IMG/VR virus record: IMGVR_UViG_3300022660_000081
Span: 2,500 to 66,499 of that record
Strand: one strand, 5' to 3'
DNA length: 64,000 nucleotides
From: a virus
Taxonomy: Duplodnaviria > Caudoviricetes
Of the stretch, positions 13,773 to 57,111 are shown in pieces; within the stretch, counting starts at the first letter, position 1; the number at the start of each line of letters is the position of its first letter. The notes under the pieces were generated by a model. It searched no databases and had not been told where the DNA came from. It saw only the letters and a list, made by a program, of their open reading frames with translations. A program made the position numbers and the translations under genes.

Positions 13773-14003
13773 ATGATTAAGTACAAGCTAAGATGAGTGT
13801 CTATTGATTATTCGGAGAAACTCTGAAAGAGGGTTTTAGTTATTCCATTGGTTTGAAGACGGATAGACTGAAAGTATGATAAATATATTACAATGGATGA
13901 AGCATTAGATATTGTTAATGACGCAGTTATTGACCCTAATGAGAAAAACTCTATCCTAAGTAAGAAGGATAGAGCAACTTTCTGAAACAAGCCTTTATTT
14001 TAG
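13773..14003 (+). CDS. 76-aa hypothetical protein, opposite strand to the late operon
   Basis: MIKYKLRGVSIDYSEKLGKRVLVIPLVG... ends in TAG; open with TGA=Gly. Confidence 0.6.
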
Positions 14004-14038
14004 CGTGAATTTTTCTTATTTTTTAATTTTTTCACGCA

Positions 14039-15983: not shown

Positions 15984-16345
15984 TTTGCTTTCTTAGAAAC
16001 TAAAGTAGTAGTAGCAATCTCTCAACTCTTAAACTCCTCCATCTTCTTCCTTATCTCCTCTACACTCCAAGCCATAAACGGCTTCTTATGTGTCATTAGG
16101 AAATAATCATTCCTCGCTCTATCCAACTCCCCATTATTCACTTCCTTCCCATACCTCTCAAATAGCTCATTCTGTAACTTGTTTAAGAAACCTAACACAT
16201 CCCAAGTAGGTAAATTCTCAAACCTATTAGCATACACCCTATACTCATTAATAAGCTTGAGTATAGCTTCTGCTTTCTCTGAAGCTTCTCTCCTCTCCAC
16301 TCCAGCGTGGTTGTTTTTGTTCTCTAAATCGATGAACTCAGCCAT
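15959..16345 (-). CDS. Phage A hypothetical protein, 128 aa
   Basis: Track 16022..16345 extended through TGA to TAA. Confidence 0.7.
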
Positions 16346-32155: not shown

Positions 32156-32584
32156 ATGCCAAGAAAACGTAAGACAGAAAAAACACCAAGACAGAAAGCA
32201 ATCGAGAAGCTTGATGATATATTCTCAAAATACATCAGACTTCGTGATTGCGATTCTGAATGAATAGTTATCTGCCCATTATGTTGAGCAAAGAAACATC
32301 GAAAAGAATCACAGAATATGCACTTCATAAGTAGGTGAGTATTGAAATATAGATTTGATGAAGATAATTGCCACGCTTGATGTATGAGATGTAATGTGAT
32401 ACTGAATTGAAACTATATGAGATATACACGCCGAATGATAGAAATGTATGGAATAAAAAAAGTAGATGAAATGATGAATGATAAGAGCGTGTATTCAATA
32501 AAGACATACGAGTTGGAAGAAATGATAGATAATTACGAAAAGCTTGTGAAAGCAATCGCAAGCAGAAAACATTTAGATGTATAA
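32156..32584 (+). CDS. NinG/Rap-like endonuclease (phage B), 142 aa
   Basis: KLDDIFSKYIRLRD...CPLCG...H(W)KESQNMHFISRG...RFDEDNCHAGCMRCN. Confidence 0.85.
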
Positions 32585-32592
32585 ACAAGAGA

Positions 32593-33546
32593 ATGAAAAT
32601 ATTGAGCTTATTTGATTGAATCGCTTGTTGATATGAAGCTTTACTTCGTGCTTGAATCAAGATAGATAAATACTATGCGAGTGAGATAGATAAATATGCA
32701 ATACAGATAGCACAGAAGAATCACCCAGACATCATTGAAGTATGAGATGTTCAAAATATCGTTGGGGGGGGGTATGATATAGACTTACTATTATGATGAA
32801 GCCCTTGTCAATGATTCAGCGTAGCTTGAAAGAAATTAGCATTCGATGACCCAAGAAGTAAGTTGTTCTTCGAATATGTAAGAGTGTTGAAAGAAACGAA
32901 GCCGAGATATTTCTTGTTGGAGAATGTGAAAATGAAGAAAGAATGGCAAGATATAATCAGTAGAGAATTGTGAGTAGAGCCGATTGAGATAAATAGTAGT
33001 TTGGTGTCAGCACAGAACAGAAAAAGATTATACCGAACGAATATACCTGGCATTTCACAGCCAAAAGATAAGTGAATTTTATTGAAAGATGTATTAGAAG
33101 AAAAAGTAGATGAGAAATATTACTTATCAGAAGAACAAGTGAATCAATTATTACGCCGATGAAAGTGAAGAAATGATAGATGAATAGAACACCTAAACAT
33201 AAAATCAGATGAAAAGATATGAGCAATTACATCACATTGTTGAGCAATGTGTAATACAATAAAGTTGATAAAGGAAGTTGAGATACCTTGTGCTACACAG
33301 ATATGAAACAGCCCAAACTTCTGAAACAGCTATGGAAGTCAGAAAGCATATACATTAAGAGCAAGCAACCCAAATGGTGTGATAGAAAAGCATAGAATAA
33401 GAAAGCTGACACCCATTGAATGTGAAAGACTTCAAACATTACCAGATAACTATACTGAATGAGTGAGCGACACACAAAGATATAAGATGTTATGAAACTG
33501 ACGAACTGTTGATGTTATTGCCCATATATTAAGCTTTATATGATAA
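32593..33546 (+). CDS. DNA cytosine-5 methyltransferase, 317 aa
   Basis: Motif I LSLFDGIACG; IV GGSPCQG; VI LLENV; VIII QNRKRLY(W)TNI; X LGNG(W)TVDVIAHI; in-frame G9 tract at 32764-72. Confidence 0.95.
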
Positions 33547-33555
33547 GATAAGAAA

Positions 33556-34065
33556 ATGCCAAAGCAAAAGCGAGATTATGACAAAATCAAAATGGAGTTT
33601 ATGCTTTCAGATTTCGATGATGTAAAATGATTTTTGAGTGATAGTTGAGTGATATACAACTCGAAGCGAACTACGATGACAAAATGACGAACGAAAGAGA
33701 AGAAAGAATTCAAAAGAAGAATCTATGAGCAAGCATTAAAAGAGAAATGAGAAGAAACAGCGAAAGAGATAAGCGATAATGTATGAAGATATGAGATGTT
33801 GAATGAAGATATGCTTGAACGAATGGAGAAGCAAATGGAAGAAGACAGAAGACCAGCACAGAAATGAGAAAAGAAAAGGAAGCTGAATTCGAACGACATA
33901 ATGAATATGCGAAAGATATCGAGAACAGAAAGATGATTACCAACGAACATATCGAAAGTAGATTGAAACATCAAGAATGAAAGAGCAGAACTGACAGATG
34001 ATGAGAAAGAAGCGTTAGATGTGTTGATGTGAAAATCACAAGATAAGCAAAAGTCAAATAAATAG
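33556..34065 (+). CDS. terS: Phage B terminase small subunit, 169 aa
   Basis: MPKQK(W)DYDKIKMEF...TKG(W); directly upstream of TerL. Confidence 0.65.
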
Positions 34066-34147
34066 ATAGAAAGCTTGATTAGAGAAAATCGCTTCCGAGC
34101 AGAAACGAAAAACACAGCATATTGACAATTTATATTTTATATTATCA

Positions 34148-35620
34148 ATGAATCGCAATGAAGCAATAGAGATAATGAAGCAAAGTAGCTTGTTGAGAAA
34201 CAAATACTATGAGCAAAAGTTCTTCGAGTTCTGCCAATTCTATTTTATGGAGTATTACACATTCGATACACCAGCGTGCTTGTTGGAAATCTATCAAGCA
34301 TTGGAAGAATGAAAGAATGTATTCATAGAGTGATTCAGATGAAGTGCTAAAACAACTATTGCACAGATGTATGTAAGCCGATGTATAGCATACAAGAAAC
34401 GTAGAAACATAATGCGATATGCCCAAACGATAGACAATGCAGAAGAAAATCTGACTTACATAGCGAACAGCTTCATATGAGATACAGACTGAGGAGAAAG
34501 ATTTGTTAGAGATTATTGAAACTTATATTACCCAGATTATACAATCAAGCAATGACAGAAGAAAATAAAGAGAATCGATAAGTTTATTACAGAAAACGAT
34601 TGTTATGTTAGAGCGATGTCTTTATGAACATCACCAAGATGAAAGAACTATACAGCACCAGATTGAAAATTCAGACCAGACTTGTTGATATTTGATGATG
34701 TTGATACAATTGCAAGCACAGATTCCAAGAAGAAGATAGATAAGAATTTCGAGTTCTTATTGAATGAAGTATTATGATGAACGACAAATCAGACTCAAAT
34801 GATATTCTTATGAAACACGATATACGAAGATTGATTAGTTCCAAGATTTAGAGAACACATCGCAAATGATAAGAATCGAACAATAATCAGAATACCAATC
34901 TATGATAAAGAAAACAAGATAGTTCGAGATAGATTCGTAGAAACAGATGAAGAAGCGAACAAGCTGAATGAATGAATAAGTGATATACATAGAAGATACA
35001 CATCGCTTGAATCAGAAAGAAGAAGACTTTGAAGCATATCATTTAGTCAGAACTATTTATTAGTTCCTTATGTGATATGACAGCACATCATTACAAGAGA
35101 TATGATTCAATACGATAATGAGTGTAGGAATTACAAGTTCGATTACATTCAGATATGAGTTGACCCAGCTGTAAGTGAAAAAGAATGAAGCGATGAATAT
35201 GCAATCAATATAACGTGATTCATACAAGACAGAATCTATCATCTTGAAAGCATATGATTGAATTGAAAAGAGAAAGACATTTGAGCTTCATCAAACATAG
35301 TGAATCAGATGTATATAAAATATCAAGCAAAAAAAGTTGTAGTTGAAACAGTCGCATATCAGCAAGTCTTGAAGAATGTATTCAAGAGAATGTGAATGGC
35401 TGTTCAAGAATATAAGACTATCAAAGACAAGACAACAAGACTAATGGAGAAACAAGTATTATTTGAAGACAAGAAAGTCTATTTCGCACCGTGATATTGA
35501 AATGATAAATTGATAGAACAATTGTTATCGTTCCCAAATGGAGAACACGATGACCGTATCGACGCAATGCTATTAGCAATGCAAAGCACAAACAAGAGCT
35601 TTTTTATTTGAGCATTCTAA
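34148..35620 (+). CDS. terL: Phage B terminase large subunit, 490 aa
   Basis: Walker A EGFRGSAKTT; LLIFDDVD; GVDPAVSEK..SD; EQLLSFPNGEHDDRIDAM. Confidence 0.95.
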
Positions 35621-35625
35621 TCGAT

Positions 35626-36216
35626 ATGAGAAGAAAAAGCAGTCGATATTCACCACAACAGAAAGCAGAAGCAATGGAAGTTGTAATATGTGAGAATCAA
35701 ATCATTCAGTTTCTATCAAAAGTGAATGAAGAATCAGAAACAGAAAGATATACAACAGAAATCTCGTTGTTTGAATTTCGAAAGCATATACAGAACAAGA
35801 AAGACAATCTTGACCCTTGATTGTTCGAATCAGATTAGTGTTTTATATTCTATTATAATATAATGTCAGAAAGAACTTACACCAAAGTCGATGAATTTAC
35901 ATTCAAGGTCGAAGAAGACAGACATCTTGAAGAAACAATGAGCATTGACAAGCAATTCAATTATCTTATGCAGTTGTGTAATGGAATGCGTGATTGTGTA
36001 AAGAATGCTAATGAGTTTCAAGACAAGTTTGTTCAATTCGTAAAGACTTATAATTGGTATGTTGATATGTTATCAGAAGCCAAAGAGAAGTGTTGATATG
36101 AATACAAGCTTCCAGAAAAAATTGAGCTTCCAGATTGCTTTGATATCATCGAAGTAAAGATAGAGAACATTCCAACAATAGACTTCAAATTAAACGAAGA
36201 AAAGAAAGCAAGTTAG
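35626..36216 (+). other. Two small ORFs between TerL and portal (35626..35838; 35863..36216)
   Basis: Manual translation; followed by a terminator-like hairpin at ~36205-36230. Confidence 0.6.
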
Positions 36217-36301
36217 ATACTTGCTTTTTTCTTAATAATTATGTTTATTCGCTATTTGTGATTATAATGCAGACAATGATATTTATATCACAAACAGCTG
36301 A

Positions 36302-37546
36302 ATGTGATTCGCAGAAAAAATCAAAAGCATAGTTGCAAAGACTTTATGAATTCAAACAAAGTCTTTTTCTTGAAATAGTTTAAGAAGTCTATCTTCATTA
36401 TTAAAGAACGACTATTCACTTGATTTGAATACATATTATACACTTTACGAATACAATGGAGATATTCGCCAAGCTATTCAAAAAATTTCTAATTGAGTTG
36501 CAAGAAACTGAATATACCTACAAGATAATCAAAGAAAGACAATAGAGAACAATATCATTACAGATGAAGTGTATTGATTATTTCAAGCACCTACTTTTCT
36601 TAAATGGAAGAAAGAGCTATACAAGAATTATATGCTATCGTGAGAACTATACTTTTTGCCAGTTTATAATGATTGATGAATAGCTATCTGATTTGATGTT
36701 GTTGATTCAAGAATGGTAAGTAAGACAGTCAATGAATATGGAGTAATACAATATTTCACAGTTTCATCAGATTGACGTGAAGAAAGATATTCACCAAGAG
36801 AAATAGCATACTTCAAACGAGAAGATTCTGTTCATAATCAAGCAGATTGAATGTGAGTATTGAGCTGATGTATATATGACGCACTTGCAGACCTTGAAGC
36901 ACAGAAAACAAACTATTCATTCTATCAGAATTCAGCAATACCGTCAGCTTTGCTTGTTCTTGATGACAATATGACACCAGAAGAAATGCAGAATGCGAAA
37001 GACCAATTTGAAGCACAATACAAGTGAAGCAATAATCAGCATAAAACACTTATTGCTTGATGAATAAAAGAGATAAAGACAATATCACTTTCACCAAGAG
37101 ATATGGAATTCATCAATCAAAGACATCTTACAACAGAAAAGATATCAGCAGTCTTTGGAGTTCCTAAAACAGAATTGTGATATGTAGAAGATGTGAATTA
37201 TTCAAACTGACAAACGCAAAGAAAAGCATTCATAGAGTGAACATTAAGACCACTTGAATCAGACTTTGAGCATATATTGAATAAGTTGCTTGAAATGTTC
37301 AGACCAGACTTACGGAAAAAGATTCGAGTAAAAGCTGATTGAGAACAGCTTGAAGAAACACAAGAGCGAATGGAATGATTAAGAAAAGATGTTCAATGCT
37401 GAATAATGACAATCAATGAAGCAAGAATTGAAAGATGATTCCAAAAGATAGATGATGAGAATGCAGATAAGTTGCTTGTATCGAGAAACGTTGTATTGCT
37501 TGAAGATGTTGCCCTTGACCCAGTTTTATCACTTGATGAAGCATAA
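36302..37546 (+). CDS. HK97-family portal protein, 414 aa
   Basis: ISAVFGVPKTELGYVEDVNYSN...FIEGTLRPL; GIMTINEARIERGF. Confidence 0.92.
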
Positions 37547-37549
37547 TCG

Positions 37550-38374
37550 ATGAGCGTTTCAGCAGATTACAGAAGACTCTTACGTAGAGAAATCAAAATC
37601 AGAACGATAATCGAAAAATCATTCAAGAAACAAAGTGAATTCTTACAAGCACATCTAAAAGACTTATATGAGAACTACAAATACAATATAGAACTTACAC
37701 GAAACAAGCTAAACAATGAACACGTGCATATATATAGAGAAAAGAAAGACCGATTTGACATAGAGAACAATGAGCCGTTATGATGATTCCGAAGAAGTAT
37801 GTGAATATATGATATGATTGATTCAATGAAGCCACAGATAAAAAAGTCAGTCGAGAAGTGATATAAGAGAAGTTATAGATTATTAGAGCCGTTATTGAAA
37901 GAAAATTGATTCAGATACTATGAAGATGTAATAAGTAATTATGAGAATTATCGATGAGAATTAGAGCTATCAGATTACAAATGAAGTATAAGCCATACAA
38001 CGAAGCACGATGTAATAGAAATATTGAAGAATTGAATCGATAATAATCTGACAGTTGATGAAGTTGCAAAAGAAATAGAAAAGAAAAGTGAAGTGTTGTT
38101 CTGAAAATGACGTGCTAATACCATAGCGATTACAGAAATATGAAAAGCATATGAATATTGAAACTATCAGCCAATTAAACAGTTGAGTGATGTGTGAATT
38201 CCTATGGAGAAGAAACGAGAAACTTGCCACGATTCAAGAGTAAGACCAGAACATCGTGAATGTGAAGAATTATGACGAGTGAGTGTTGACTATACATACC
38301 CAAGTGTATGAGTTGCCATTCCACCTTGATGACCAAATTGTCGTTGCACAATTCTATACCGTAGAGCAAAATAG
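37550..38374 (+). CDS. Minor head protein (Mu F/SPP1 gp7-like), 274 aa
   Basis: RANTIAITEIGKAYEYG...KK(W)ETCHDSRVRPEH...PPGGPNCRC. Confidence 0.85.
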
Positions 38375-38396
38375 ATTTATATCTTACAAAAGAACA

Positions 38397-39671
38397 ATGA
38401 AGAAGTTCAAATTAGTAAAAGACAAGTGATACTTCCAATCACTTCGAGAAACAAAATCTGTGAAAGAAACAGAAGATTGAGCTGTTGAGATAAGCTGATA
38501 TGCTTCAACAAAAGACAAAGACAGATGATGAGATGTTGTTGAGCCAAAAGCTTTTCAATCAGCATTAGAAAGATATATGACAAACCCAATTGTTTTGCTT
38601 CAACATAAAATGGACAAGCCAATTGGAATTGTTGAAGAAGCTAATATTGATGACAACTGATTATTTATCAAAGCCAAGATATCACAGAATACTGATTGAG
38701 TAATGGACTTAATCAAGAATGGAGTATTAAGAGCTTTCTCAATCTGATATTCAGTAAAAGATTATGATACTGATGTTCGTGAGCTTGCAGATTGAACATA
38801 TGATATGACAAACATCATTAAAGATTTAGAGCTTTACGAGATAAGTGTTGTTTCTGTTCCAATGAACCCATACGCATTGAGTAAGTCTATTGAAGATTTG
38901 CTTGAAGTAGAAGAACACGAAGAAGAATCAGAAGAAGAAGTTGTAGAAGAAGAAAGCGAAGAAAAAGAAGAAGAAACATCAGTTCAGACTGTTGCAGAAA
39001 GTGAGCAGACAGAAGAAGCTGTTGAAGAATGAGCAGATGTTCAAGAAGAAGAAAAATCAGAAGAAATTGAGTCAGAAGAAATAGAAGAAACAGAAGAACG
39101 CCCAAACGAAGAAGTTGAAGCAAAAGAGATTTGCGAAGAAGCAGACGATAAGAAAGAATGAGTAGTAGAAACTATAAATTCAGAAGAAGTAGAAGAAGTA
39201 GAAACAAAGGTTGATGATTCTTTAATGGAAGAAGACACAATTAAAGAAATCAACGAAATCAATTGAGCAGATGAAAATTCTGAAATAAGTGATGAAGCAG
39301 AAGTTGAAGAAAGTTCTGAAAATGATTCTGAAACTGAATCAAACGATGTTGAAGTCGTTGAAAAACACGATGAAGAAATCGTTGAAACTAAATCAATGGA
39401 AGTAGAATCACAAAAATGATTCGATTTTGAGTCTAAAATCGCACAGCTTACGAAATCATTTGATGATAAGCTTGCAATGAAAGATGAGCAAATCAAATCA
39501 CTTGAATCAAAAGTTGAACAAATGACGAAGCTTTTCGCTGAATCATTAGAAACTATTGATAGAATGGCGACTGCTGTAAAGAATACACCAGTCAATAGTG
39601 GACTTCAATATAAAAGACCACTTAAAAAATGATGATACTTTGACATTGCGTCAATCATCAAATCTTTATAA
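38397..39671 (+). CDS. HK97-type prohead protease with a long Glu-rich linker and C-terminal coiled coil, 424 aa
   Basis: ISGYASTKDKDRGGDVV...VLLQHKMDKPIG...GLFIKAK...RAFSIG...LELYEISVVSVPMNPYA. Confidence 0.9.
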
Positions 39672-39696
39672 TCTTTATTTCGTATTTTAATTACAA

Positions 39697-40785
39697 ATGA
39701 ACTTCAAAGACCTTATTGCAGAAGCAAGAAAACAAGCAAAAATCTTCGTAAAAGAAGAAGTTGTAGAAAAGCCAGAAGTAGAAGAAGAAGCAAAAGCAAA
39801 CGAAGTTATGAACACGTGAGCTACAAACTTTTGAGCTGAATTAATTCCTACTAATGTAGTAGCAGACCCTTTACTTGATATGTTAGGAAACTATTCAAGA
39901 TTATTGCCATTACTTCCTTGAAATCACGGAAACAATATGGCTATTTCAGAAGTTGTTCCAGTAATTGGAGAAGCAAACTTATTCCAATGAAATACTGAAT
40001 GGACAACTGGTGCTGGAAGTCTTACACCAGCTAATAATTGACCAATGACTGATAAAGTAGTTATTTCTCAATGACAATTCATCACTACTGTTGATGTATC
40101 TGATAGAGAACTTACTTATGCTACTGATAGATTAGAAGCTATCATTAGAGAAAGAGTAAACAGAAGTGCTGGTGAAACTATTGACGCTGTAATAATCAAT
40201 GGAGATAGTGCAACAACTGGAAATGTAAACTGAACATATTCAGCAACTGCTTACTACGCACAGCAAGATAATGGAATCAGAAAAGTTGGAATCGCAAATA
40301 CAGCTATTTCTGTTGGAACTCTTACATCTGCACAATATCTTGCAGTTAAAGATGTTCTTGACCCAAGATATCAAGCTGAATTAAATGACTTATTATTCAT
40401 TGAGCCAAGCAATGTTTATAGCAAATCATTAGCTTTGTCTGAATTGATTACTATGGACAAATTCTGACCAAACGCAACAATATCAACTGGTGTTTTGGCT
40501 AAAATCTGGAATATAGATGTATTAGTTGCAAAGAACTTCCCAGCAAAGACTGATTCAACAGGAGTTGTTTCAGCTACATCTTCTGATAATACAAAAGGAA
40601 GTTTCGCTTGTGTTTATAAGCCAGCTATTCAGTATGGTTTCGGAAAACCTTTACAAATCGAAGTTGGACGTGTTCTTGGAAAAGGAATCAAAATCGTTGC
40701 AACTATGGAATTCTGATTCGCTATTGTAAACAACAAAGCTGGACTTGGAAAGACAGTTGGACTTGGAGTAAATGTTTCATTATAG
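39697..40785 (+). CDS. Phage B major capsid protein (HK97 fold), 362 aa
   Basis: GAELIPTNVVAD...; IDAVIINGD; follows the protease; terminator after the stop. Confidence 0.85.
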
Positions 40786-40794
40786 CATAAATTC

Positions 40795-40830
40795 AATGGA
40801 AGAACATCTGCAATATGGTGTTCTTCCAAA
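40795..40830 (+). terminator. Hairpin after the capsid gene
   Basis: TGGAAGAACA/TGTTCTTCCA stem. Confidence 0.55.
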
Positions 40831-40858
40831 GAACTTTATATCAATATCTAAACAAGAA

Positions 40859-41056
40859 ATGGAGAAGAAAATATTAAAAGCAATTCTTGAAGATGAACTC
40901 GTTGATTGAGTAGAAATCAAGAAGTGAGAAAAACACGAGTTTGATAAATCAATGGCTGAATACTTATTAAGAGCATATGGAAGCCACCGAGAAGAAGTTC
41001 AAGAAGAAGCAAAAGAAGAAAAGAAAGCTGAAAAGAAAGTCAGCAAAAAGAAATAA
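40859..41056 (+). CDS. 65-aa head accessory protein
   Basis: Open with TGA=Gly; Lys/Glu-rich tail; position after the capsid gene. Confidence 0.6.
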
Positions 41057-41076
41057 TTTAGTAAGAAACAATCATA

Positions 41077-41667
41077 ATGAGCTATTCAACACTTGCACAA
41101 TTCAAAGCCTATCTATGAATGGACGAATCAGATACGAGTCAAGATACACTTTTGACATCATTCTTGAATTCAGCAAATGAGAAGTTGAACAATCTTTGTT
41201 GAGTAGATAGTTTTTCTCTATGAACACAGAAACAAACTATTGAATCAAGATGAATATATGATTCACCAAGATGACTTGAATTCTATTTGAAGAATAAGCC
41301 AGTTGTAAGCATTGATAAAATCAATTGAGAAGCAACGCCACGAGTAAAGTGAACAGATTATCTTGTTATCTATGACAGAAGAATAATTTGTAAGAAAATA
41401 GCTTTGAATGATTGGTGAATGGCTGAAATCGAATATACAGCTTGATATCAAACTATTCCAGATGATTTGAAACTAATGGAAATGATGTTAGCAAGCTGAA
41501 TGCGACAAGAACATAATTACGAATGAGTTCAATCTTATAGATTATGAGATGAATCAATCACATTCGGAAGTAAGACTTGAAGCAACTGAACATTGACACC
41601 AGATGACCAATATTTCAGCTTTTCAACACTTCTAAACAAATATAAGAACTTTAATTTGCCAATCTAA
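41077..41667 (+). CDS. Head-tail connector (gp6-like), 196 aa
   Basis: YSTLAQFKAYLG...DTLLTSFLNSA...IEYTAGYQTIPDDLK...YRLGDESITF. Confidence 0.85.
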
Positions 41668-41671
41668 ATCA

Positions 41672-41974
41672 ATGAGCATATTATACAACAAGAAAGCATA
41701 TCTATACAAATATATCACTAATGAAAATATGGTATCAAGCTATTCAGAAACTTGAATCTTGTTTGCTTGTAATATTCAGCCAGTAAGCACAAAAGACTGA
41801 ATTGTTTGAGAAGCTTTTTTGAAGACAAAAAAGATGTATTCAGATAAGCAAGTAGAAGTTGGAGATAAAGTAGTATGCGATAGTATTTCTTACATAGTAA
41901 ATAGTGTTGAACATCGAGATTGAGCAAAGAGAAAGTATTACAAATCATTTATTGTAGAAAGCAATTGAAACTAA
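41672..41974 (+). CDS. Head closure protein, 100 aa
   Basis: Position and size; ...VEVGDKVV...YIVNSVE. Confidence 0.65.
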
Positions 41975-42366
41975 TGGACATCACATTCAATGGCGACCGA
42001 GATAAAGTTGAGAATCTTGATAAATCTGTATCGTCAGCTGTTCAAACAATACTTACAGACATTGCATTATTGATTCAGAACAAAGCGAAACAGAACGCAC
42101 CAGTTCGAAGACGTGAAAATTACCCACCAACGCCAAGCAATAAGAAAAGGAGATGATGAACATTAAGAAAAAGCATTTCAACAGATTTCAATAGAATTCA
42201 AAGATGAATGGTTGTTGTATGAAGTGATGTAAAATATGCAAAAGTTCGTGAATTTGTGAACAACTTACAGCCAACAACAAAGAAATATTTGCGAAGATGA
42301 TATTCTGAAAATAAAGACCAAATTCAGAAGATTATCAATGAAGATTTATCAAAGGAATTAAAATAA
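41974..42366 (+). CDS. HK97 gp10-like neck protein, 130 aa
   Basis: AKQNAPV...GTLRKSI...VGSDVKYAK. Confidence 0.8.
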
Positions 42367-42810
42367 ATGTCAATTACATACAGCTTCAAAGAAATATGAG
42401 ATACAATCTATCAATATATGAATCAAATCAAAGATACAGATTTGAAAGTTTGAGCAGTATATAATCACGACATAAAGATAGAAAATTGAATCAGTCTTCC
42501 AGCAATTATTATTACCCCAAGCAATTGAGCAGTTAGTTTATTAGATAGTTGTAGTTATGAAAATCAAATCAATTACACAGTAAGACTGATTGATAGAACA
42601 TACAGCAATTATTGAGATGTAGAAGACAATATAAGAGTAGTTGCTGATATGGTATTACAAAAGCTAAAAGAAATCTGAACGATTACTTGGACTAATAGTA
42701 ATTGAAAGACCGTAAAATGTGAATTTGATTATGAACGATGATTCACAGACACGCAAGAGCCTTTTAGAGTGTTCGAAGTAAGTTGTAGATTCACATCAAT
42801 TGAGCAATAG
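42367..42810 (+). CDS. Tail terminator-like protein, 147 aa
   Basis: Position; LPAIIITP motif. Confidence 0.6.
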
Positions 42811-42827
42811 TTTATATCTTAATTATA

Positions 42828-43010
42828 ATGAAAATGGCGAGAAAATGTAAAAACTGCCCAGAAAAGGAAGAAATATCAAATGTAAAAGCAAAATCAGAAA
42901 GGAAATACAGCTTCCCAGCATTGTGAATAGTTGTAGAAGCAAAGAGCCTTGAAGAAGCTTACAAGAAAGTAAAAGCATTGACTGAATATAAAAACAAGTG
43001 AATAGAATAA
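42828..43010 (+). CDS. 60-aa hypothetical protein
   Basis: Open with TGA=Gly between the terminator-like and tail tube genes. Confidence 0.55.
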
Positions 43011-43034
43011 TTTATTTTATAAACAATTATAAAA

Positions 43035-44174
43035 ATGTCAGACGCATTTATCGGAAGAAAGTCAGCAATATGACTTTGAATCGAATCAACAAGATGAACA
43101 GCTGTTCAGCCAGTTGTATGGTTGCCAAAAACAGCTTGAACATTAAACCCAACAACAGAATCAGCATTAGATGATTCTTGATATGGAGTAATTGATGAAG
43201 TATATGATTCATTCACTACTAAAAATTTCTCTTGATTATCATTAGAGTGAAACGTTAAAAACGATTCAATTTGATACTTATTAGAGCTTGCATTAGGAAG
43301 CTATGAAAAATTGAAAGTTTTCACTTGAACACCTACTTGATGAACTCCTAAAAGATGAGATACAGTTTCTTGATGAGTGTTGAGAAAGATTCTTGTAATA
43401 GGAAATACTACTTATTATTGTTTTGATTGAAGTGTTTCAGCGTGAGTAATTTCAAACTGAACTTGGACTATGACGTGAGTTGCAGTAAATGACTTCAATG
43501 TTCATTTATTTAGTAGATTAAACAGCAATACACACCCAAGTGCAACAATCTATGATATAGACCCAGTTGCCTGAAGTTATGCACCATTCTGTATGATAAA
43601 TACATTCGAATTGTCTTGTGAAGTTGCAGACTATATGAAATTTAGTGCAGAATTCCAATGAAAGCAAATGCAAGCAATCGCCCCTTGAAGTGAGCCAACG
43701 CCAGCATATTCAGATGAGCCAACATTCACAGCTTCAATGTGTTGAGTAAGATTTGCAGATGATGAAGCTTCTCTAAATTCAGCTGATGAAGTATGTATGC
43801 AGAATTTTAGAGTAGCTATCAATAAGAATCTTACAGATATTCAATGTTTTGGAAGCACAGATGTTGATTCATTATATAATCAGCAATTCTGAATTGAGTG
43901 AGATTTTGAAGCATTATTTGATGATACAACATTAAGAGATTATGCTTTGAATAGCACAAAGAAAGCAGTCAGATTCTACGCAGAAAACGGAACTTGAAAC
44001 GACTTTTCAGCAATCTATGTAGATTTGATGAAAGTATGATTAAACGACCGAGCAAAATCTGATTGAAATAATGATATTGTAAAGCAAACAATGTGATTTA
44101 CTGGACAATATTCAAATACAGATTGAGCTTCTATTGAAATCGTTCTAATCAATGGAAATTCAACTTGATACTAA
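43035..44174 (+). CDS. Major tail tube protein, 379 aa
   Basis: FIGRKSAIGLGIESTRGTAVQP...; position before the chaperone and tape measure genes. Confidence 0.8.
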
Positions 44175-44319
44175 TCGACCAGTATTCTCGTGAGCCTATC
44201 GAATGAAGCTAAAAGAACGAGAATCATATATCAACGGCGACTGCTGGCTTTCTTCTCTTGTGCCGTGTAGTCGCCTAATATAAACAAGAGAAATTCTTTA
44301 CAATTTAATACAAGAGAAG

Positions 44320-44601
44320 ATGAAAGTAAAAATCAATTGAGCAGATGTAGAAGTTCAATTCACATCAGCATATACAAGATGAATAGATAAAGAATTCAAT
44401 AAAATTCTTTTCAAGTGAGTAAAAGCAAACACAAACTCTATTTCTCAATGAGTAGAAATGAATCTTGAAAATGTTCAAGACGCAAATGATTATATCGTAA
44501 AAGCTATGACAAATCTTAATGAAGAACAAATCGCACAGCTTTCAATAAACGATTACAACGATATTCTTGCAGAAATAGAAAAAATCAAAATACCCAGCTA
44601 A
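44320..44601 (+). CDS. Tail assembly chaperone G, 93 aa
   Basis: Between the tail tube and tape measure genes; ends ...EKIKIPS TAA. Confidence 0.7.
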
Positions 44602-44848
44602 TAATGATGAAATAATCAATCAATTCGTAAAAACGCTGAAAACTTGAAAGAATCTTACAAAAGAACATCGTGATTATGTATTGATGAAAGAAGTATATCA
44701 TTGTTCGCCAACTGAATTAGACAAACAAGATGAATATATATTAGACTTACATTTCAGAATGCTACAAAAAGAAAGAGAATTCGAATATATAGAAAGGAAA
44801 AGAGCAGAACAGAAAGCAAAAATGAATAGTTTATCACATAAGAAATAG
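44582..44848 (+). CDS. Tail chaperone T extension, reached by a +1/-2 frameshift
   Basis: Open +1 frame from 44579 with no suitable start near its 5' end; YHCSPTELDKQ motif typical of GT extensions. Confidence 0.6.
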
Positions 44849-44851
44849 TAA

Positions 44852-46618
44852 ATGGCTGATTCATCAACTTATACCTTATGACTTGTAATTACAGCACAGA
44901 ATAAAGCGATAGAAGAAATCAATAAGCTTTGAAAATCTGTTGATAATGTGAAATGATGAATCACAAAGCTTTCTGAAACAACAAAAAAAACTTTGAAAAC
45001 AATCTGAACAACAGCAACAGCTATCGCTTGAAGTGTTGTTGCATTATGAAAAACTTTTGTTGATTCAGCATTAGAGAACGAGCCATTACAAAGAAGTTAT
45101 GAAAGATTGACAGAAACAGCACAAATTTCAGCAGATGAAATGCTAAAAGCTATGAGAAAAGCTTCAAAGTGAACTGTTTCAGATACAAAACTTATGGCTT
45201 CTGCAAATACAGCCCTTTCATTGAATGTAGTAAAATCAGCTGATGATATGGCGACTCTTATGGAAATCGCAAGAGTGAAATGACAAGCAATGTGAAGAAG
45301 TATGGAAGAAGCACTTGATGACATCGTAAGATGATTATGACGTGCAAGCCCAATGATTCTTGATAATCTTTGAATAGTTATCAATCAAACAGAAGCACAA
45401 GAAGAATATGCTAAACAACTTTGAAAAACAGCTTCACAATTGACAGAAGCAGAAAAGAAACAAGCCCTTGTAAATGCAGTTGTAAAGCAAGGAAAACAAG
45501 AATTGCTTGAAACGTGAGAATTGCAATTGACTATGGCTGAAAGATTACAAGTTGTAAATGCACAACGAGAAAATATGAAGAATACACTTGGTGAAGCTTT
45601 GTTGCCAATAGTTCAAAGAGTATTAGAAGCTATTACACCTATTATAGAAAGAGTTTCAGAACGAATAGAACAAAACCCAGAACTTACAGCAAATATTATG
45701 CTTACTGTTTGAGCAGTTGCTTGATTAGTTGCTGTATTATCTTGACTTGCATTAGCATTGCCTTGAATAGCAACAGCAATTGGAGTTTTGAGCTGACCTA
45801 TTTGACGAGTTCTTGCTTGAATTACAGCATTAGCAATAGCTTGGAAGAATAATTGGTGATGAATACAAGACAAAACAAAAGAAGCAGTTGCAGATATAGA
45901 AGAAAGAATCTGACCACGAATTGAAAAAATAAGAACACGATTTGAAGAACATTCTATTGAAATCAATACTTATCGATTTGCTTTACGAGAATGAATCAAA
46001 TGAATCTTATCGTGAGCAATAGAATTCATAACTTGAAGTCTTACAATGTTCTTTGATTGACTTTCTATAATGATGTCTTTCTTTTCGTGAGATTTTCAAT
46101 CAGCACGAGAATGATTATGACAGTTTCTTGATGATTTCGCTATTACGGTTGATAATACTATGACAGAAGCCTTTGGAGATATGCGAACTAATATCAAAAA
46201 CTGATTTCTTGAATGATATAATACTTGTGTAGACTTATTGCAAAGACTTTACAACTTTATTCAAAGTATTGTTGCTTGAATCAGAAACGCTTGGAATAGT
46301 ATGACATCAGCAGTAAGTAGTTTTGTTGATAGGTGAGTAAGTGAAGCAAAAAGTCTTATAAAAAGAATGTCGTCTTGAAAGAAAGCTTGATGATGAGTTG
46401 TATATTGATGAGAAACATATCTTGTATGAGAAAACTGACCAGAATTATTCACACCAAGCCAAAGATGAATGATTACTCCAAATAATCAGATTACAAATAA
46501 TAATGGAATAGAAATCAATATTTCGTGAGTAAGTGTAAGAAATGATGAAGATATCAATGCACTTGCAAATGAGATAGTAAGACAAATCAAATTAGAGAAA
46601 GATTTTGGAATAGCTTAA
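44852..46618 (+). CDS. Tape measure protein, 588 aa
   Basis: Ala/Gly-rich helical protein with TM-like stretch; C-terminal GGVVYGGETYLVGENGPELFTP motif. Confidence 0.9.
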
Positions 46619-46641
46619 TTTTACATCAAATCAGATAGAAA

Positions 46642-47472
46642 ATGGACGATATATTATTGAATAGTTGATTGCTATGAAATGCTTGACAGAAAAAGCTAAA
46701 AAAAGCAGAAAGCTGAATGTTCATTTTCAATTGATACAATCTTCACAACTGAACAACAAGAAAGATTATCAATTCGAATCACGATGATTTGTGAAGTATG
46801 GCTTTTGAAACATATAATTACCCAAGAGCAGATTGATGAAATGCTTTGAGTAAGTATTACAGAACAAAGACAATTACTATGACAATGAGCCTTACAGCAC
46901 CAACAGAAGAATGATTGAATGATTTGATAGATGAGCTAAAATTTCAAACAAGCAAAACTCAATGATATCTTGATATAATTATCAATGGAATAGTAAGAAG
47001 ACGAGAAGCAACTTTGACTTCTTTGCAGTTTTGAAGACAATCTTATAATGTGAATCGAATATGAACTGTTCAATTAAGATTTGAATGCGTAAACCCATTA
47101 TCATTCACACTTACATCAATTACAAATACATTTTCTTGAATTAGTGGTGCTTATGCGACTGAAATAAATTACACGTGAAAAGTTGTAGCTTACCCAACAA
47201 TTTATCTAATCGTGCAAGCTGAATACGATTTGAATAGTTTCTCTATCGATATGAACTGATATATCTTCACAATAAATCAGTCAATTTTACCGTGAGATTT
47301 GATTACAATAGATTGAGAAACAAAACTCGTAAAAATCAATGGAGTTATAGTTCCATATAATTGACCATTCCCAGCAATTGAGCCTTGATTGAATCACATA
47401 GAAACAAGCTTGAATAGTTGAGCATTAGCAAATTACGATATGATATTTATATACAAAAACTTGTTCTTGTAA
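46642..47472 (+). CDS. Distal tail protein (Dit-like), 276 aa
   Basis: Follows the tape measure gene; QLRFECVNP...DLITIDGETK...IEPGLNHI. Confidence 0.7.
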
Positions 47473-48524
47473 TGAATAGATATGACATCAAAGTATTCAA
47501 TAAAAATGGAGTCTATCAATCAACGATAAACCCTAATCTGATTATGAATGACATATCTTTTTCTGAAAATACGAACTGATGACAATGACAATTGAATCTG
47601 AATCTTGCATTAGATTTTTGAGATACAACATTCTCTTGATGAGAAATTATTAAGGTTATATTGTATTCAGAAAGATACAAGCAAGGAAAACAGATATATA
47701 TGTGATATGTTTCACAAATTTCAAGAATCTATGAGATAAACAAATGATACATCAATATTGTATGCTTATGAATAGCAAGTTTATTGACAAAGATTCTATA
47801 TGCTTGAAGTTATTCTTGAAGCGTAGCAACATTATTGAATTGAATCATTGCAGAATTCAATTCTAATTATTCTTGAAACCTAATTACAGTATGAAGAATT
47901 GATTCGTTTTCTTCATCTTTGAGCTTTGATTTTGATAATAATATCACTTGTTCGAAAGCAATAGATAAAATCGCAGATTCTTGCAATTACTATCGATTTG
48001 TAAATTCAGAATGAGTATTTTCTTTCAGAAAGAAATGAACGCAGACAAATCATATAGTAGCGAATAAACAAGCTTTGGAGTCTATGAAATTGAATTACAA
48101 TATAGAATCAATGGTGAATAGATTCTATGTATCAAGAAAAGACTGAACAATAAAGACTTACAATGATACAACATCACAAAATACATATTGAATCAAAGAA
48201 AAATACCAGCAACAGACAAGTTTAGAGAATGAAGCAACACAAGATGAATATTGAAACAACTATATTTCACAATATTCAACCCCAAAGAATGCTTCAACAA
48301 TAGTTATCAATTCAGAATATGATATTGAGTCAATTATTCCGTGAGATACAATCACAGTAGTGAATACTACATATCCAGTTCATAATCTACTGATAGAAAA
48401 AATAAATTACAGACCAGATAGAATTACACTTACACTTGAAGAAAATGAAACATTGCGAAGCGTAATAAGTGAATAATTGAGAATATTCAGATTTATTTAT
48501 CGTATTCGTAATTGGTGATTATAA
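47472..48524 (+). CDS. Baseplate hub/tail-tip protein, 350 aa
   Basis: Follows Dit; start overlaps the Dit stop. Confidence 0.6.
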
Positions 48525-48560
48525 TACCAACAATATAGATTTATTTCTTATACAGACAAT

Positions 48561-50597
48561 ATGGCTTTCACAAAATATCAAAACACGAATAATGCCAGTT
48601 CGTTATTGATAGCTGATATTTCAGCAAGTGCAACAACAATGTTGATTACTGACGGCGACCAGAATCTATTCCCAAGTAAATTCCCATTTTTGCTTACATT
48701 AGAACATCTTGATTCTGAATGAAATGTAATATTAAGAGAAATCGTAAAAGCAACAGCTTGAAATCAGAATTCTTATACTGTCGTAAGATGAGCTTGAACT
48801 TGTGTTCAAGATGATACAGCTTCAAATAGAAGCCAAGATAATACAGCACACGCTTTCTATTCGTGAGATAGAGTTTCATTATATCGAACATCTGAACAAG
48901 TAAAAGACATTCAAGATAGATTAGAAACATCAGCAAATGATACAGCAATAGCAGATGAATATAGTTCTTCTCAAACATATACAATATGAGATATTGTAAT
49001 GTATAAATGAGATAGATATGTATGTTCAACAGATGTTTCAACAGCCGAAGAATTTGATTCTACAAAATGGACAAAAGTTTCAGTTCAATATGATTTAGCA
49101 CAAGCACAAGAAGATATAGAAATTTTGAAAAATTCTTGATGAAGTTCAGACCACCTTGAAGAAGAATGTCTTGTATGAGAAAAATATGTTGCAACAGATA
49201 AACTATTCAAACAAGAAACGCCAAGTCTTGATAATTCAACAGTTGATTATAATATATGAGATGTTGCTACAAACACACAAGTTCACATACAAAGAATCGG
49301 AAGTTGAGTAGCAAGTAATACAGTAAAATTGAAAGTAAAGATGACTTGAAGCCCAACAACAGCTTTACATTGTGATGTATATGAATGAACATCTTATGAT
49401 GTATCATCTACTGAAAAAGCTTGGACTTGAACTACATTACTTGCTTCAAGTCAAGTTGCATATACGAGCATAAGTTCAAGCTATGCTGAAATCACTTTCA
49501 CATTAGATAATGAAATCTGATGAACTGAATGACAGCTTCTTGATGTTGTAGTATATCAAGACAATAATACTGTAAACGCTTCAAACTATTATCAAATAGC
49601 TTGTGATTCTACACAATATTCAGAAGCTTTCAGATGTGTATCAGTAAATGGAAGCACAAAAACGCCAAGCTATCTAATGCCATATTGTTCAAGTGATTGA
49701 TTTGCACAATATTTATTATGTAAAGTCAGTTTTTTGGCTTCAAATTTAGAACGAACTTGAAATATTTCAAGTGGTATTTCGTGAAATTCAACTTCGACCG
49801 TTGCAATGGCATTGACAAACCCAACTAATCAACCGATTAAAGTTCCATATTCATCATTGAGTATCACTTGTCGTGCAAATGTAAATTCGGCTATATACGT
49901 TGGTCTTCGAGTTTATGATAGTTCTTGAACGTGAACGTCGAATTGAATAAATTACGGCTATGCAACAACAACAGACGCTACATATACTTGAAATGCTTCT
50001 AATTTATTTAGTCTTCCAGCGTGAAGTTCTTTAAGAATTTGATTTTACAACAGCACATCAACATCTCGTGCATACGTTATAACGAAATATGAATTTCATT
50101 TTGATTGAATTGATAAAAAAAACAACATAAAATCAGAAGTTTCTTGATATGCAGTAAATTGACAAATCTTCAATATATGAGAAATGTGAAAGTTTGCATT
50201 TCGGTGAATAAATAATTGAGAATTCTATACAACAGTTCCTATTTATGATACGAGAACGAAATATCTTATGACAAATGCTGTTGTCAATTCGTCAGCAATA
50301 TATTATAGAACAACAGCAGATGTAGAATGACAATATATGCTTATTGCAAGCATTTGATATTATTCTTGACAATCACATAGCTGATTCACTCTTACCCTTT
50401 GAGATAAGGCATTTTGGAGTTGAGCAACTGTAAGACAATGAGAAACTTTTGTTATGTCAAACCGATTAAAAGTTTGAGATACAATTCAAGTTTATGATAC
50501 TTGACATTGAAACACAACCTATTATGCTGAACTTAGGTGGTGCTTATTATGACCAATGTGAAGTAGTATTACTTCAATGACAGCTTCTACTTCCTAA
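48561..50597 (+). CDS. Tail fibre/receptor-binding protein, 678 aa (constant N-terminal ~381 aa plus variable C-terminus 1)
   Basis: Single frame; CBM-like YSSSQTYNIGDIVMYKGDRYVC segment; Ser/Thr/Gly-rich C-terminus; crossover site at 49702-24. Confidence 0.85.
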
Positions 50598-51493
50598 TAT
50601 GATAAATAAGTCTGTTCTCTTTATGAGTTCAGACTTTTAGTATTCTCGCCATTGAATAGATATATTTCGATTATTCGTGTTATAGCTGTTAGAAATAGTA
50701 AGTATATTATTAGAAGCAAAATTAAGCATTATAGGTTGCGAATTTGAATTAGATATACAACAATATGAGTTTGAAGATTGTCAACGTCAAAGCAGAAAAA
50801 AACAACTCGCATAATACGTAGTTCAATTATATCGTTGAACATATCACTTAATCAACTGTGTTGATTTGTTAAGTGATATTGTGTATGAAGTCGTTGTAGA
50901 AACCCATTGTCTAATCGAACCACTTATATATGGCGTATTATTAAAAAAATTTCCAATAGCATTCATATAATCAGGAAGAACATTATCTGTGAACATTGTT
51001 CAATCTTTTACTCCAAATATATTGATTTTTCATTGTTCTCCAATGCTTCGAATAGTTCAACCAACAGCATATCAGAATATATCTATTGTTGTCTTTCTTG
51101 CATAGCTCACGATTCAGCTTCGGCTTGCTGATGTCAGATAATGCGTTCTTGTAGTATTTGTGTACTGATTGTATGAATATAATCAAACACTTGTTCAAGC
51201 TGGAATTGTGAATGTTAAGTCTTTTGTGTATGTTTCTGATGTTGTTCATAAACTGCAAATAGTTCAGGATATACTTGTTCAATTAGAAAAATTTATTGAC
51301 TGATTTGTTCAGATATTAGCGTATCAAGTTATGGTTGCTGAAATCTGCATACTTACATCAAAAGAATTGCTGTTTGTATAGACAGTATTCTGCCAGCTCG
51401 TAAGAGTTTGATAAGGTACGCTTATAGTTCAAGCTCATCTACTTCAACTAATAGCTTCTTGAATAGTTGTTTTACATAATAAATATTGTGCAA
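49702..51493. mobile_element. Invertible DNA segment bounded by perfect 23-bp inverted repeats
   Basis: TTGCACAATATTTATTATGTAAA at 49702-49724 and its exact reverse complement at 51471-51493. Confidence 0.85.
50637..51491 (-). other. Silent alternative tail-fibre C-terminus (~284 aa, no start codon at its 5' end)
   Basis: Open from the inverted repeat in the same register (AQYLLCK) to TAA at 50637; shares the GYAV.G.I..IGE.GK motif with C-terminus 1. Confidence 0.85.
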
Positions 51494-51603
51494 CATTTCA
51501 GATTTGAATTATAGTTATAAAAGCAACATTTAAGGAATTATTTCTTTTATAAGACTATTATGCTTATAATACATATACTATATTTATTCATATATGAAAA
51601 ATA

Positions 51604-52086
51604 ATGAATGAAGCAGAATGAATCGCAATAGGAATATTCGGTTGAATATCTGTTGCTTGAATTCTTGATTATTTCTCAATTAGTTGAGAATGACTTATTA
51701 TTATGAGCATTATGCTTGTTCTTGATTTCTTATTCTGAATCTTATCTGCAAAAGTGAGATGAGAAAAGATAGAAAGTAGGAAATGCCAAGAATGACTTAT
51801 CAAGAAAATGACTCGCCGACTATTGCCATTCATCGTTGCTTGATGATTGAAATGGACTTGAATGCCTTGAATGGAAGCTTTGACAAAAGTAATAGTCTGA
51901 ATGATAATCTTTTCTGAACTTTACAGCGTAATATGACATATCTATTCAATAAACTATAAGGAAGAACTTCCAGAAGCAGACGCTTTCAAGATGTTATTGA
52001 ACAGCATAGTAAAGTTATTGAGAAATCTGATTAAGAAAGAGAATGAAAAAATAGATACAGAAGATGAAGATTTATCAGAAAAATAA
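51604..52086 (+). CDS. Holin (phage holin family 4-like), 160 aa
   Basis: Several TM helices; LVLDFLFGILSA...S...GLIKK...ELYSVIGHI...LP..F. Confidence 0.8.
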
Positions 52087-53694: not shown

Positions 53695-54684
53695 ATGAAA
53701 AAAGACTTTGCACGAGATTATTGAGATGAATATGCGTTTTGAGAAGAAGTAGATTTTGATATTAAAGAAATCACGCATAATGTTCGACCACATTCAAATC
53801 AATGAGCAAATACTGAAACATCATCAGCTTGCACGATTATATGAGCATTGAATCAGATAATCAGATTATTCTGAATTGAGCTTACAAAGAAAGAATCAAA
53901 TAATCTATGAATAGAAGTAGTTCACTATTGTGAGCAATTCTGATATAGAATAGGAAGCTGACGAGATACGCCAACAGCAATCAATTCAGTATGTAAGTTT
54001 TGGAATGAGATATGAGCAGAAAGATTCAAGACTGAAAGAGTATTCTATACAAGAAGATATTGGAATACAGAAAAGCCACAAGAAGCATTGAAGAAATGAC
54101 ATCTTGTATGATTCACTATGGCTTTGAACTTTGGAGAAGATAGAAGAAAATGATTAGTCTATAAAGATTCTTACCCAGCTTGATGATGACATCGCTTGAA
54201 TCGACAAAGCACGAAAACAACAAGACCAACTTGATGAGCAAGTGAGCCAACAGCAGATTGTTGAGTTTATGACAATTATGATTGACTTACTAATCAATAT
54301 CTAATAAGAGATAGAAGTAAGTATATGAATAAAGGAATGTATGCTTGGTGATATATTATTCTTCCACAATCACGAATGAAAAAAAGTGTTGAAGAAGAAA
54401 AGAAAGCAATAGCAGAAAGAAAAGCAATAAACTATGTTCTTTGAGCTTTATCTTGTGCTTATGAATCAGTTTCACCAGAATATCAAGAAAAGTTTTCAGA
54501 ATTAGCAAAGCAGATAAGACAAGACTTTAAGAATGCAAGAGCAATGGAATCAGACAAAGAAAAGAAATGAGCGATAGCTATTACTGACGCATTGAGCTAC
54601 TTATACAAATTCGCAAATAGCGAGAATCAGAAAATTTATTCAGAATTAGCGATGAAGAATAGAAAAGATTATAATTTTGAATAA
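53695..54684 (+). CDS. Papain-like cysteine peptidase, probable endolysin, 329 aa
   Basis: NQG...SACTIIG (catalytic Cys), GGH, DNY; lies in the lysis cassette after the holin. Confidence 0.65.
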
Positions 54685-55525: not shown

Positions 55526-55653
55526 AGCGAACGACATTAAGATATAAAGTTGATTAATATATACAGTTATCAAATTGGAAGTAAACTATAAAATTAGAAT
55601 TATCTTTACATTTCAAAGAAAATATATATAGTATAGTATGTTGACATAAGCTT

Positions 55654-56652
55654 ATGAAATACACACAGCTTTTTATATGCTTATGTTTTTCAAATATGCA
55701 CGAATTCAGACAGACATTACAAGACCGATGTGATTATGAAAAGGAAGTAAAAAATCATAATTCACGAGAATATAGATTTTGTATGGTGAGATGTTTCTTT
55801 AAGCGATTAGTTGCAACTAATAGACCAATTATTATCGAAGAAATAGAGCTTTCAGATATTATAAATTACTTGATATATTATAAGACAACACCTATCAAAG
55901 CAAAATGACATAAAATTTGAAAATTCCCAACAAGGAATGCAGAATACAATTCAGTATGTTCAATCAGATGTTTCTTTAAGTATTGCTGTATTGTATGAAT
56001 GAGATTGAAATTCAATCGAGAACAGATTCCGATGTTCAAACAAGATGAAGCAAGACGTGAGCCAATGAGCAATGAAGACTTTGAATTATTACATCAAGCT
56101 ATAAAGAAATATGCAAAATCAGAAGAAATCAGAATCAGAAATGAATTGATGATAGAAATACCACGAGAAACTTGATTAAGAAGAAGCGAAATAGTCAGAT
56201 TAAGATTTGCAGACTTTCATAATCAGAATCGTCAATGCCGTGTTCTTGTAAAGTGAAACAGATATGAATCAGTTTTCTATTCAGAAAAGCTACAAAAGAA
56301 AGTTCTTGATTACGAGAAGCTACTTAATGAGAAATATAAAACACTTGATATTGAATATATATTCATATGTTTAGGACAAAAAGAGAAATGAAAGATAATG
56401 ACTAATGATTTGCTATGATGAAAATTCAGAAGAATAGTAAAAAGAATGCAGAAAGATTGAATGCTTCCAGAATGAAAAAATTTAAGTCTTCATCAAGAAA
56501 GACATTCATTTGCAATGAGATGTGTATATAGCTGACTATCACAACAAGCAACAACCCAACTAATGCGTCATAAAGACCCAAAGATTACGCTTCATTACTA
56601 TCATATGAACGATTCACGACTATTGAATCAATACGATTCGATTTGTGTGTAA
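55654..56652 (+). CDS. Tyrosine recombinase (XerC/D-integrase family), 332 aa
   Basis: TGLRRSE (R), VKGNR (K), HQERHSFA (HxxR), LMRH (H), TLHY (Y). Confidence 0.92.
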
Positions 56653-56949: not shown

Positions 56950-57111
56950 ACGACGACAAACTTAACAGCCGTCGTTCAAGAATAAACAACATCAACTTTT
57001 AATTCCGACAAATCAAGGTGTTGTGAAACTGAACGACATCACAACGCCTTTGTTTGTCTGAATTGATTGTGTGTAAGATTCGAACAAACAAAGCAAATGT
57101 TCGAGTCTTTT
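56950..57111 (+). promoter_or_regulatory. Three-hairpin structured leader ending in a terminator, upstream of the replication genes
   Basis: ACGACG/CGTCGT; long imperfect stem 57001-57064; AAGATTCGAACA/TGTTCGAGTCTT followed by a T run. Confidence 0.45.

Follow-up and report, generated by a model that had tools for sequence, protein, structure and literature searches.

The DNA analysed here (the window) is a stretch of 64,000 nt comprising bases 2500-66499 of the 66.5-kb IMG/VR virus record IMGVR_UViG_3300022660_000081, which has a G+C content of 31%. Long open frames are found in the window only if TGA is read as a sense codon, and TGA makes up ~7-8% of the codons in the late genes, which fits glycine (genetic code 25). 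Our subject is a predicted invertible segment that includes the end of the tail-fibre gene P0001 (48561-50597, plus strand), an open reading frame (ORF) under code 25 that matches phrog_8469, tail fiber protein (E 5e-9). This region is part of a siphovirus-type late operon. The locus is composed as follows:

48561-49698, plus strand: constant N-terminal part of the fibre, residues 1-379 of P0001, code-25 ORF
49699-49726, plus strand: left crossover site, GATTTGCACAA-TATTTA-TTATGTAAAGT, 11-6-11, encoding (F)AQYLLCK(V)
49727-50597, plus strand: cassette A, the currently expressed C-terminal (receptor-binding) part, in frame with the constant part to the stop at 50595-50597
50637-51468, minus strand: cassette B, the silent alternative C-terminal part, lacking a start of its own 5' of the repeat
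51469-51496, minus strand: right crossover site, ATGTTGCACAA-TATTTA-TTATGTAAAAC, 11-6-11

Anatomy of the tail-fibre switch

The segment is delimited by a perfect inverted repeat of 23 nt (23/23), at 49702-49724 and 51471-51493, with 1746 nt between the arms. This is the only such pair in the 66.5-kb record, where the repeat has two copies and 0.00 chance matches are expected at ≤3 mismatches. The repeats sit within 28-bp sites of the 11-6-11 type, which bracket a segment of ~1.75 kb. Each site is an imperfect dyad, with arms TTGCACAA and TTATGTAA around an asymmetric 6-bp spacer. An earlier note on this DNA had described both sites as 11-6-11 with identical TATTTA spacers, and they read exactly so, at 49699-49726 on the plus strand and at 51469-51496 on the minus strand.

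The coding content of the segment is what an exchange of fibre tips would need. Residues 1-390 of the fibre are ~60% identical in seven viral contigs, and this homology ends at the repeat. The repeat itself encodes AQYLLCK in frame both in the fibre gene and in the minus-strand cassette, whose frame is open from 51500 to 50637, over 288 codons under code 25. Moreover, cassettes A and B are homologous (30% protein identity, E 9e-10), and the junction predicted after inversion would place cassette B in frame with the constant part as AQYLLCK-TTIQEAIS. Since the repeat is in frame on both strands, the silent frame is open and the two tips are homologous, inversion would swap the distal fibre in frame. 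By its sequence, this anatomy is that of a Mu/P1-type host-range switch. Note that a scan of the record found two crossover sites and one silent cassette only, and no multi-cassette array with repeated sites.

A second phage carries the same design. G402 (locus L002) is a complete related phage of 35,960 bp with direct terminal repeats, whose recombinase is 67% identical to that of the window's phage (P0003, see below) by tblastn and 71% identical in the alignment. It contains a predicted invertible segment of 1.3 kb in a different fibre gene, with perfect 23-nt flanking repeats around unrelated cassettes. One of its sites reads TTGCACAA-TAATTG-TTGTGCAAAGT and encodes TIIVVQS, in a codon phase different from that of the window's AQYLLCK. 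Since the site is read in another codon phase, it is the DNA site that is conserved, and not the peptide. G402 encodes a single tyrosine recombinase and no serine recombinase, and a third dif-like site is absent from it; in the exact-match scan its repeat matched only its own contig.

We found the switch design in two phages only, that of the window and G402; no further inverted pair was present among 39 viral contigs with perfect 8-6-8 arms and at least 120 with a perfect right arm. The seven phages with the same constant fibre part have no switch, and at the homologous hinge they carry a sequence that is related but not dif-like, which suggests that the site was adapted in situ. The fibre DNA was absent from the 401 host genomes searched.

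Dif-like sites in the phages and in Absconditabacteria-type genomes

The host genomes were reached through a relative of P0003 found in G001, a metagenome-assembled genome of the Absconditabacteria, which are recoded bacteria with tiny genomes, and the sample was then extended to 121 genomes of the class of G001. A pattern derived from the phage sites matched G001 at a perfect dyad, TTGCACAA-GATACA-TTGTGCAA, located at a 127-nt overlap of two contigs, a branch point of the assembly. The dif predicted for the host clade is ACTTTGCACAA-GATAYA-TTGTGCAAAGT; in the alignment the conserved block is 28 bp long, and the flanks are unrelated between genomes. Allowing ≤1 mismatch, the host pattern was found in 26 of the 121 genomes, at one place in 24 of them and at two in G109. 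G001 is counted among the 26 with its single locus, which the two overlapping contig ends both contain. With the pattern reversed as a control, two of the 121 genomes matched (G018 and G089). The arms of the host sites vary symmetrically between genomes, as in TTGTACAA/TTGTACAA and TTGCATAA/TTATGCAA. Two of the predicted sites (loci L025-L049) serve here as examples:

G066:C1:498134-498155: predicted host dif
G098:C1:539190-539211: predicted host dif

The GC skew was examined in five single-contig genomes (G066, G098, G076, G034 and G038). Two complete genomes gave a close match: in G066 (1.18 Mb) the maximum of the cumulative G-C curve lies 89 bp from the site (within ±200 kb), and in G098 it lies 57 bp from the site (within ±100 kb). 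Some of the host genomes (G030, G034) have a single tyrosine recombinase, and the host recombinase of G001 scores 240 bits on the NCBIfam XerA model (cut-off 220) and 249 bits on XerD. We read ACTTTGCACAA-GATAYA-TTGTGCAAAGT, whose arms are perfectly symmetric, as the candidate dif of these chromosomes, with one Xer as its probable recombinase.

A further observation concerns G001. At the end of C1 and the start of C7 (L010 1400-1526; L014 1-400) the assembly breaks just past the dif site, and on C7 two more degenerate dif-like sites lie within 300 bp, which points to an element that has inserted at dif in some of the population.

The window was then compared with these sites through a position weight matrix built from the arms of the 26 host sites, with which ~64,000 window positions were scored. 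The left inversion site ranked first, with 19.1 bits, and the right site second, with 10.0 bits. The best score of shuffled sequence was 6.4 ± 3.8 bits, and 19.3 bits was reached once in 200 shuffles. When the host 8-6-8 pattern was searched with ≤2 mismatches, the two inversion sites were the only matches in the window, with 0.07 expected. The likeness to dif claimed in the earlier note is therefore borne out by ranks 1 and 2, and the comparison it had proposed with the predicted Absconditabacteria dif gave arm positions equal to the clade consensus at 18 of 22 (left) and 16 of 22 (right). The likeness is stronger to the predicted dif of the host clade than to that of E. coli or B. subtilis. 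Of the two dif sequences quoted in that note, the one for E. coli agrees with the published GGTGCGCATAATGTATATTATGTTAAAT (PMC2731167), and the one for B. subtilis was not found in the texts searched.

At the level of sequence, then, the window sites imitate the host-clade dif. For this pattern we regard G402 as decisive; its site TTGCACAA-TAATTG-TTGTGCAAAGT scores 31 bits, within the host range of 25-40. The spacers are a different matter: TATTTA in the window and TAATTG in G402, versus GATAYA in the host dif.

Two other phages bear on the use of dif-like sites. G410 (IMGVR_UViG_3300007537_000001) is a complete TGA-recoded tailed phage of 47.7 kb with terminal repeats. It carries a single near-perfect dif mimic, ACCTTGCACAA-GACTCA-TTGTGCAAAGT (L109 232-259; record position 30053), and neither a tyrosine nor a serine recombinase. 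Since this recombinase-less phage has a dif mimic, use of the host Xer by phages of the clade is plausible, and G410 is a candidate for a tailed IMEX or for a plasmid prophage resolved by the host Xer. In G409, classed as a provirus (L113 3147-4868; L129 83-1796), a recombinase 29-33% identical to the host Xer adjoins a full dif-like site with the spacer TGTACC, possibly as a dif-targeting integrase or else at the edge of a prophage including the host dif.

Recombinases and the enzyme of the switch

The switch has no dedicated invertase. As the earlier note had stated, no serine invertase adjoins it: a search reading through stops found no PF00239 serine recombinase in the whole record, and the neighbouring gene is that of the holin (51604-52086). 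IS110/Piv-type genes (PF01548) were likewise absent from the record. The only PF00589 tyrosine recombinase in it is the following:

55654-56652, plus strand: P0003, armless Xer-like tyrosine recombinase (PF00589, E 1.7e-19)

P0003 consists of the catalytic PF00589 domain and a short core-binding N-terminus only, and its catalytic residues R, K, HxxR, H and Y are intact and align with those of the host Xer. Its identity to the host Xer is 24%, and on the XerC, XerD, XerA and XerS models it reaches 65-72 bits, far under their cut-offs, versus 240-249 bits for the host enzyme. Its gene lies 4.1 kb downstream of the switch, past the lysis genes and other genes, and no tyrosine invertase stands beside the cassettes.

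Among related phages, the P0003-type recombinase is a syntenic core gene. The recombinase of L003 is 98% identical to that of L002, and the fibre of L003 is different, with neither an inverted cassette nor a dif-like site. In the complete G404 the recombinase is 43% identical and occupies the same syntenic place, and there is no dif-like site at all. Moreover, neither the window's record nor G402 contains a third, attP-like copy of dif. Since L003 and G404 lack the switch and no attP-like copy exists, this enzyme has a job in which dif-like sites play no part, and the switch is gained and lost independently of it. These comparisons of gene content establish that the phage recombinase is independent of the switch. 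Serine recombinases were absent from five related phage records, three of them complete.

Of the 401 host genomes, only two contained relatives of P0003, in each case on a contig that is short or ambiguous. One of these contigs, G001:C9, resembles the phage in the recombinase region only, so no att site can be defined from it.

The surroundings of the P0003 gene have features of their own. A probable promoter/operator is the divergent intergenic region on its 5' side (55574-55653), which is kept in four relatives and carries a CATAAGCTTATG palindrome and two TTGACAT motifs. On its 3' side, a non-coding stretch (56990-57110) forms nested hairpins with 26-nt arms at 57001-57026 and 57039-57064 and is kept in L002-L004. 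No tRNA or Rfam family was found in it; candidates for its role are an attP, an origin and a terminator. A motif of the form ACAA-N6-TTGTGCAA inside the recombinase gene of L002-L004 was discarded as a site, being coding conservation and absent from the window.

We propose that the segment switches the host range of the phage by site-specific inversion, and that the host Xer drives this in trans; we give the proposal an even chance of being right. The core sites have the build expected for a tyrosine recombinase of the Xer type, with two inverted arms around a 6-bp asymmetric overlap region. Xer would bind both arms of each site, the inverted copies would synapse, and strands would be exchanged across the identical 6-bp spacers. 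Recombination between the inverted 28-bp core sites would thus flip the 1.75-kb segment and join the other tip in frame. The enzyme would be borrowed from the host, as it is by IMEX elements and pdif modules, and because the site arms imitate the chromosomal dif of the host type, the host Xer is the most likely enzyme. Tyrosine recombinases usually require homology in the overlap region. Under this rule, and since the spacers differ from the host GATAYA, the phage sites would be expected to recombine with each other and to avoid crossover with the chromosomal dif. Archaeal XerA has been reported to act without FtsK (reviewed in PMC5357621). If the host enzyme resembles it, no septal activation would be needed on phage DNA.

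Several observations weigh against this proposal. That the segment flips is something we infer from its sequence: exact-match scans of viral and metagenome contigs found the 23-nt repeat only in the window's own record, and look-ups by identity gave no match for the code-4 fibre or for a code-11 ORF that lies within the segment. The window sites, with 19 and 10 bits, fall below the host dif range of 25-40, on a matrix that represents hosts at clade level. Since they score below real host sites, they would be diverged mimics, or the true host would have a variant dif. The skew gives clean support to the predicted dif in two of the five genomes only. In G076 it drops sharply at the site and the local maximum lies elsewhere, and in G034 and G038 there is no clear peak, the mean skew declining across the site. 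In bacteria that have been studied well, Xer recombination at dif depends on septal FtsK. Finally, P0003 is by its residues a catalytically complete Xer-like recombinase, which makes it a serious rival.

P0003 could invert the segment, either alone or beside a role in integration or multimer resolution, and the dif-like arms would then reflect a similar DNA-binding preference. This is a real possibility, to which we give clearly less than an even chance. An armless enzyme with the full catalytic set suits simple 28-bp core sites, and its type is the only recombinase both in the window's record and in the complete G402, so that both switch-bearing phages carry it. In addition, the Rin shufflon provides a precedent for a phage-borne tyrosine invertase that acts on receptor-binding proteins (PMC6109161). 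However, the P0003 gene stands 4 kb away from the switch, its counterparts keep the same syntenic place in the switch-less L003 and G404, where they have no dif-like site to act on, and no third, attP-like copy accompanies the pair in the window's record or in G402. Its low identity to the host Xer and its low scores on the Xer models also speak against this reading. On balance, the sequence comparisons, which are indirect evidence, lean towards the host Xer, rather than the phage recombinase, as the inverting enzyme.

Another possibility could be that a serine invertase of the Gin/Cin/Hin type, from the host or from a co-resident element, flips the segment in trans, acting on half-sites around a 2-bp core. 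PF00239 genes are present in 70 of the 121 host genomes of the class, some of them invertase-sized, and trans-acting invertases are known (discussed in PMC6109161). We nevertheless consider this very unlikely. There is no serine recombinase in the window's record or in the five related phage records, and the 8/11-6-8/11 architecture, whose arms are the same as in the host dif, is what a tyrosine enzyme needs and would be an unexplained coincidence for a serine enzyme. The 10-2-10 serine-type reading that the earlier note had left room for is likewise without support in the phage, where the conserved dyad arms are 6 bp apart as in the host dif. It is also improbable that there is no active site-specific switch at all, the repeats being a fossil inverted duplication or the substrate of rare homologous recombination. 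The failure of the scans to find a second assembly in the opposite orientation would fit this, but the repeats are 23/23 identical while the cassettes share only 30% of their protein sequence, the silent cassette is open and in frame over its 288 codons, and G402 repeats the design, with perfect 23-nt repeats, around unrelated cassettes. Moreover, 23 nt is short for RecA-type exchange.

The late operon around the switch, and a gene that lies between the holin and P0003, are composed as follows:

44852-46618: tape-measure protein, late operon
46642-47472: Dit, late operon
between Dit and the tail-fibre gene: unassigned gene of 334 aa, late operon
48561-50597, plus strand: tail-fibre gene P0001
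51604-52086, plus strand: holin (PF05105, E 1.8e-7; phrog_13191), directly after the switch
53695-54684: gene of 329 aa, with no Pfam or PHROG family; the best hit of a PDB sequence search (E 0.39) was not significant

The record contains two complete packaging/head modules on opposite strands, in the window at 1-16000 (minus) and at 32500-51500 (plus):

Minus-strand module: TerS 15429-15983; TerL 14039-15451; portal 11099-13063; capsid 8355-9515
Plus-strand module: TerL 34148; portal 36302; protease 38397; capsid 39697; adaptor 41077

Since both modules are complete, the record would represent two phages or a chimeric assembly. In the related phages, the fibre genes of L002 (2144-3835) and L003 (3201-5783) have 124-142 TGA codons, with long glycine-rich tracts encoded nearly all by the reassigned stop.

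Known switches and known uses of host Xer

Invertible tail-fibre switches are textbook systems. In the G segment of Mu (Gin), the C segment of P1 (Cin) and p15B (Min), a serine invertase adjoins the segment, the sites are 26 bp long with a 2-bp core, and an enhancer works with Fis. To our knowledge, every characterised tail-fibre switch brings its own invertase. The window resembles these systems in its constant N-terminal fibre with alternative C-terminal cassettes, in the short inverted repeats inside coding sequence and in the predicted switch of host range. It differs from them in that the phage has no serine recombinase and that its sites are of the 11-6-11 tyrosine type, not 26-bp gix/cix sites with a 2-bp core.

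Known mobile elements with a dif mimic that rely on the host Xer are the IMEX elements (CTXphi, TLCphi, VGJphi), which use a single site for integration at dif. The window's phage would share this reliance. Unlike them, it has two inverted sites with a non-dif spacer inside a gene, plus a recombinase of its own; G410 does fit the IMEX description.

Tyrosine recombinases have been linked to related switches. In the Rin shufflon of Bifidobacterium prophages, phase variation of the receptor-binding protein has been ascribed to Rin, a XerD-like tyrosine recombinase of the armless type. Its gene, rin, flanks the several cassettes and is not that of the phage integrase, and each rix site is an asymmetric repeat of 11 bp (PMC6109161). 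The likeness lies in the phase variation of a receptor-binding protein with an armless Xer-like tyrosine recombinase as a candidate. In contrast, the window has a single silent cassette and sites that copy the host dif, and the only recombinase of its record is 4 kb off and is retained in relatives without the switch.

In the pdif modules of Acinetobacter plasmids, inverted dif-like Xer sites occur in pairs on which the host XerC/D acts, and inversions have been reported (PMC5790767, PMC9947245). As in the window, an inverted dif-like pair brackets a module on a mobile replicon. These are plasmid resistance modules with intergenic sites, in hosts with the two-recombinase XerC/D system, whereas the window sites lie inside a phage structural gene, keep its frame and would exchange the tip of a protein. 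In Ureaplasma parvum, XerC inverts the mba locus and is a paralogue distinct from the dif-binding enzyme, CodV (PMC3599477). This system of the Mollicutes also combines a chromosomal Xer-family tyrosine recombinase, short inverted repeats and switching of a surface protein. Unlike the window's switch, mba is a cellular locus that involves no phage gene, and its sites have not been shown to be dif mimics. In the literature covered by our full-text searches, dif-like sites were not reported for any phage fibre switch, nor was a dif for Absconditabacteria.

A wider reading, which we hold at slightly less than an even chance, is that Absconditabacteria-type tailed phages recruit the Xer/dif system with which the host resolves chromosome dimers to flip the fibre tip, without an invertase of their own, and that others use a single dif mimic for integration or resolution. 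If true, this would be the first Xer-driven host-range switch and the first dif/Xer system described in the clade. Phages would then outsource host-range variation to an essential and universally present host enzyme, and the uses of Xer would widen past dimer resolution, IMEX integration and pdif modules. The analysis also offers a testable dif prediction, with possibly a single-recombinase Xer system, for an uncultured, recoded bacterial lineage, and a short, portable pair of sites for reporter assays of Xer activity from such organisms.

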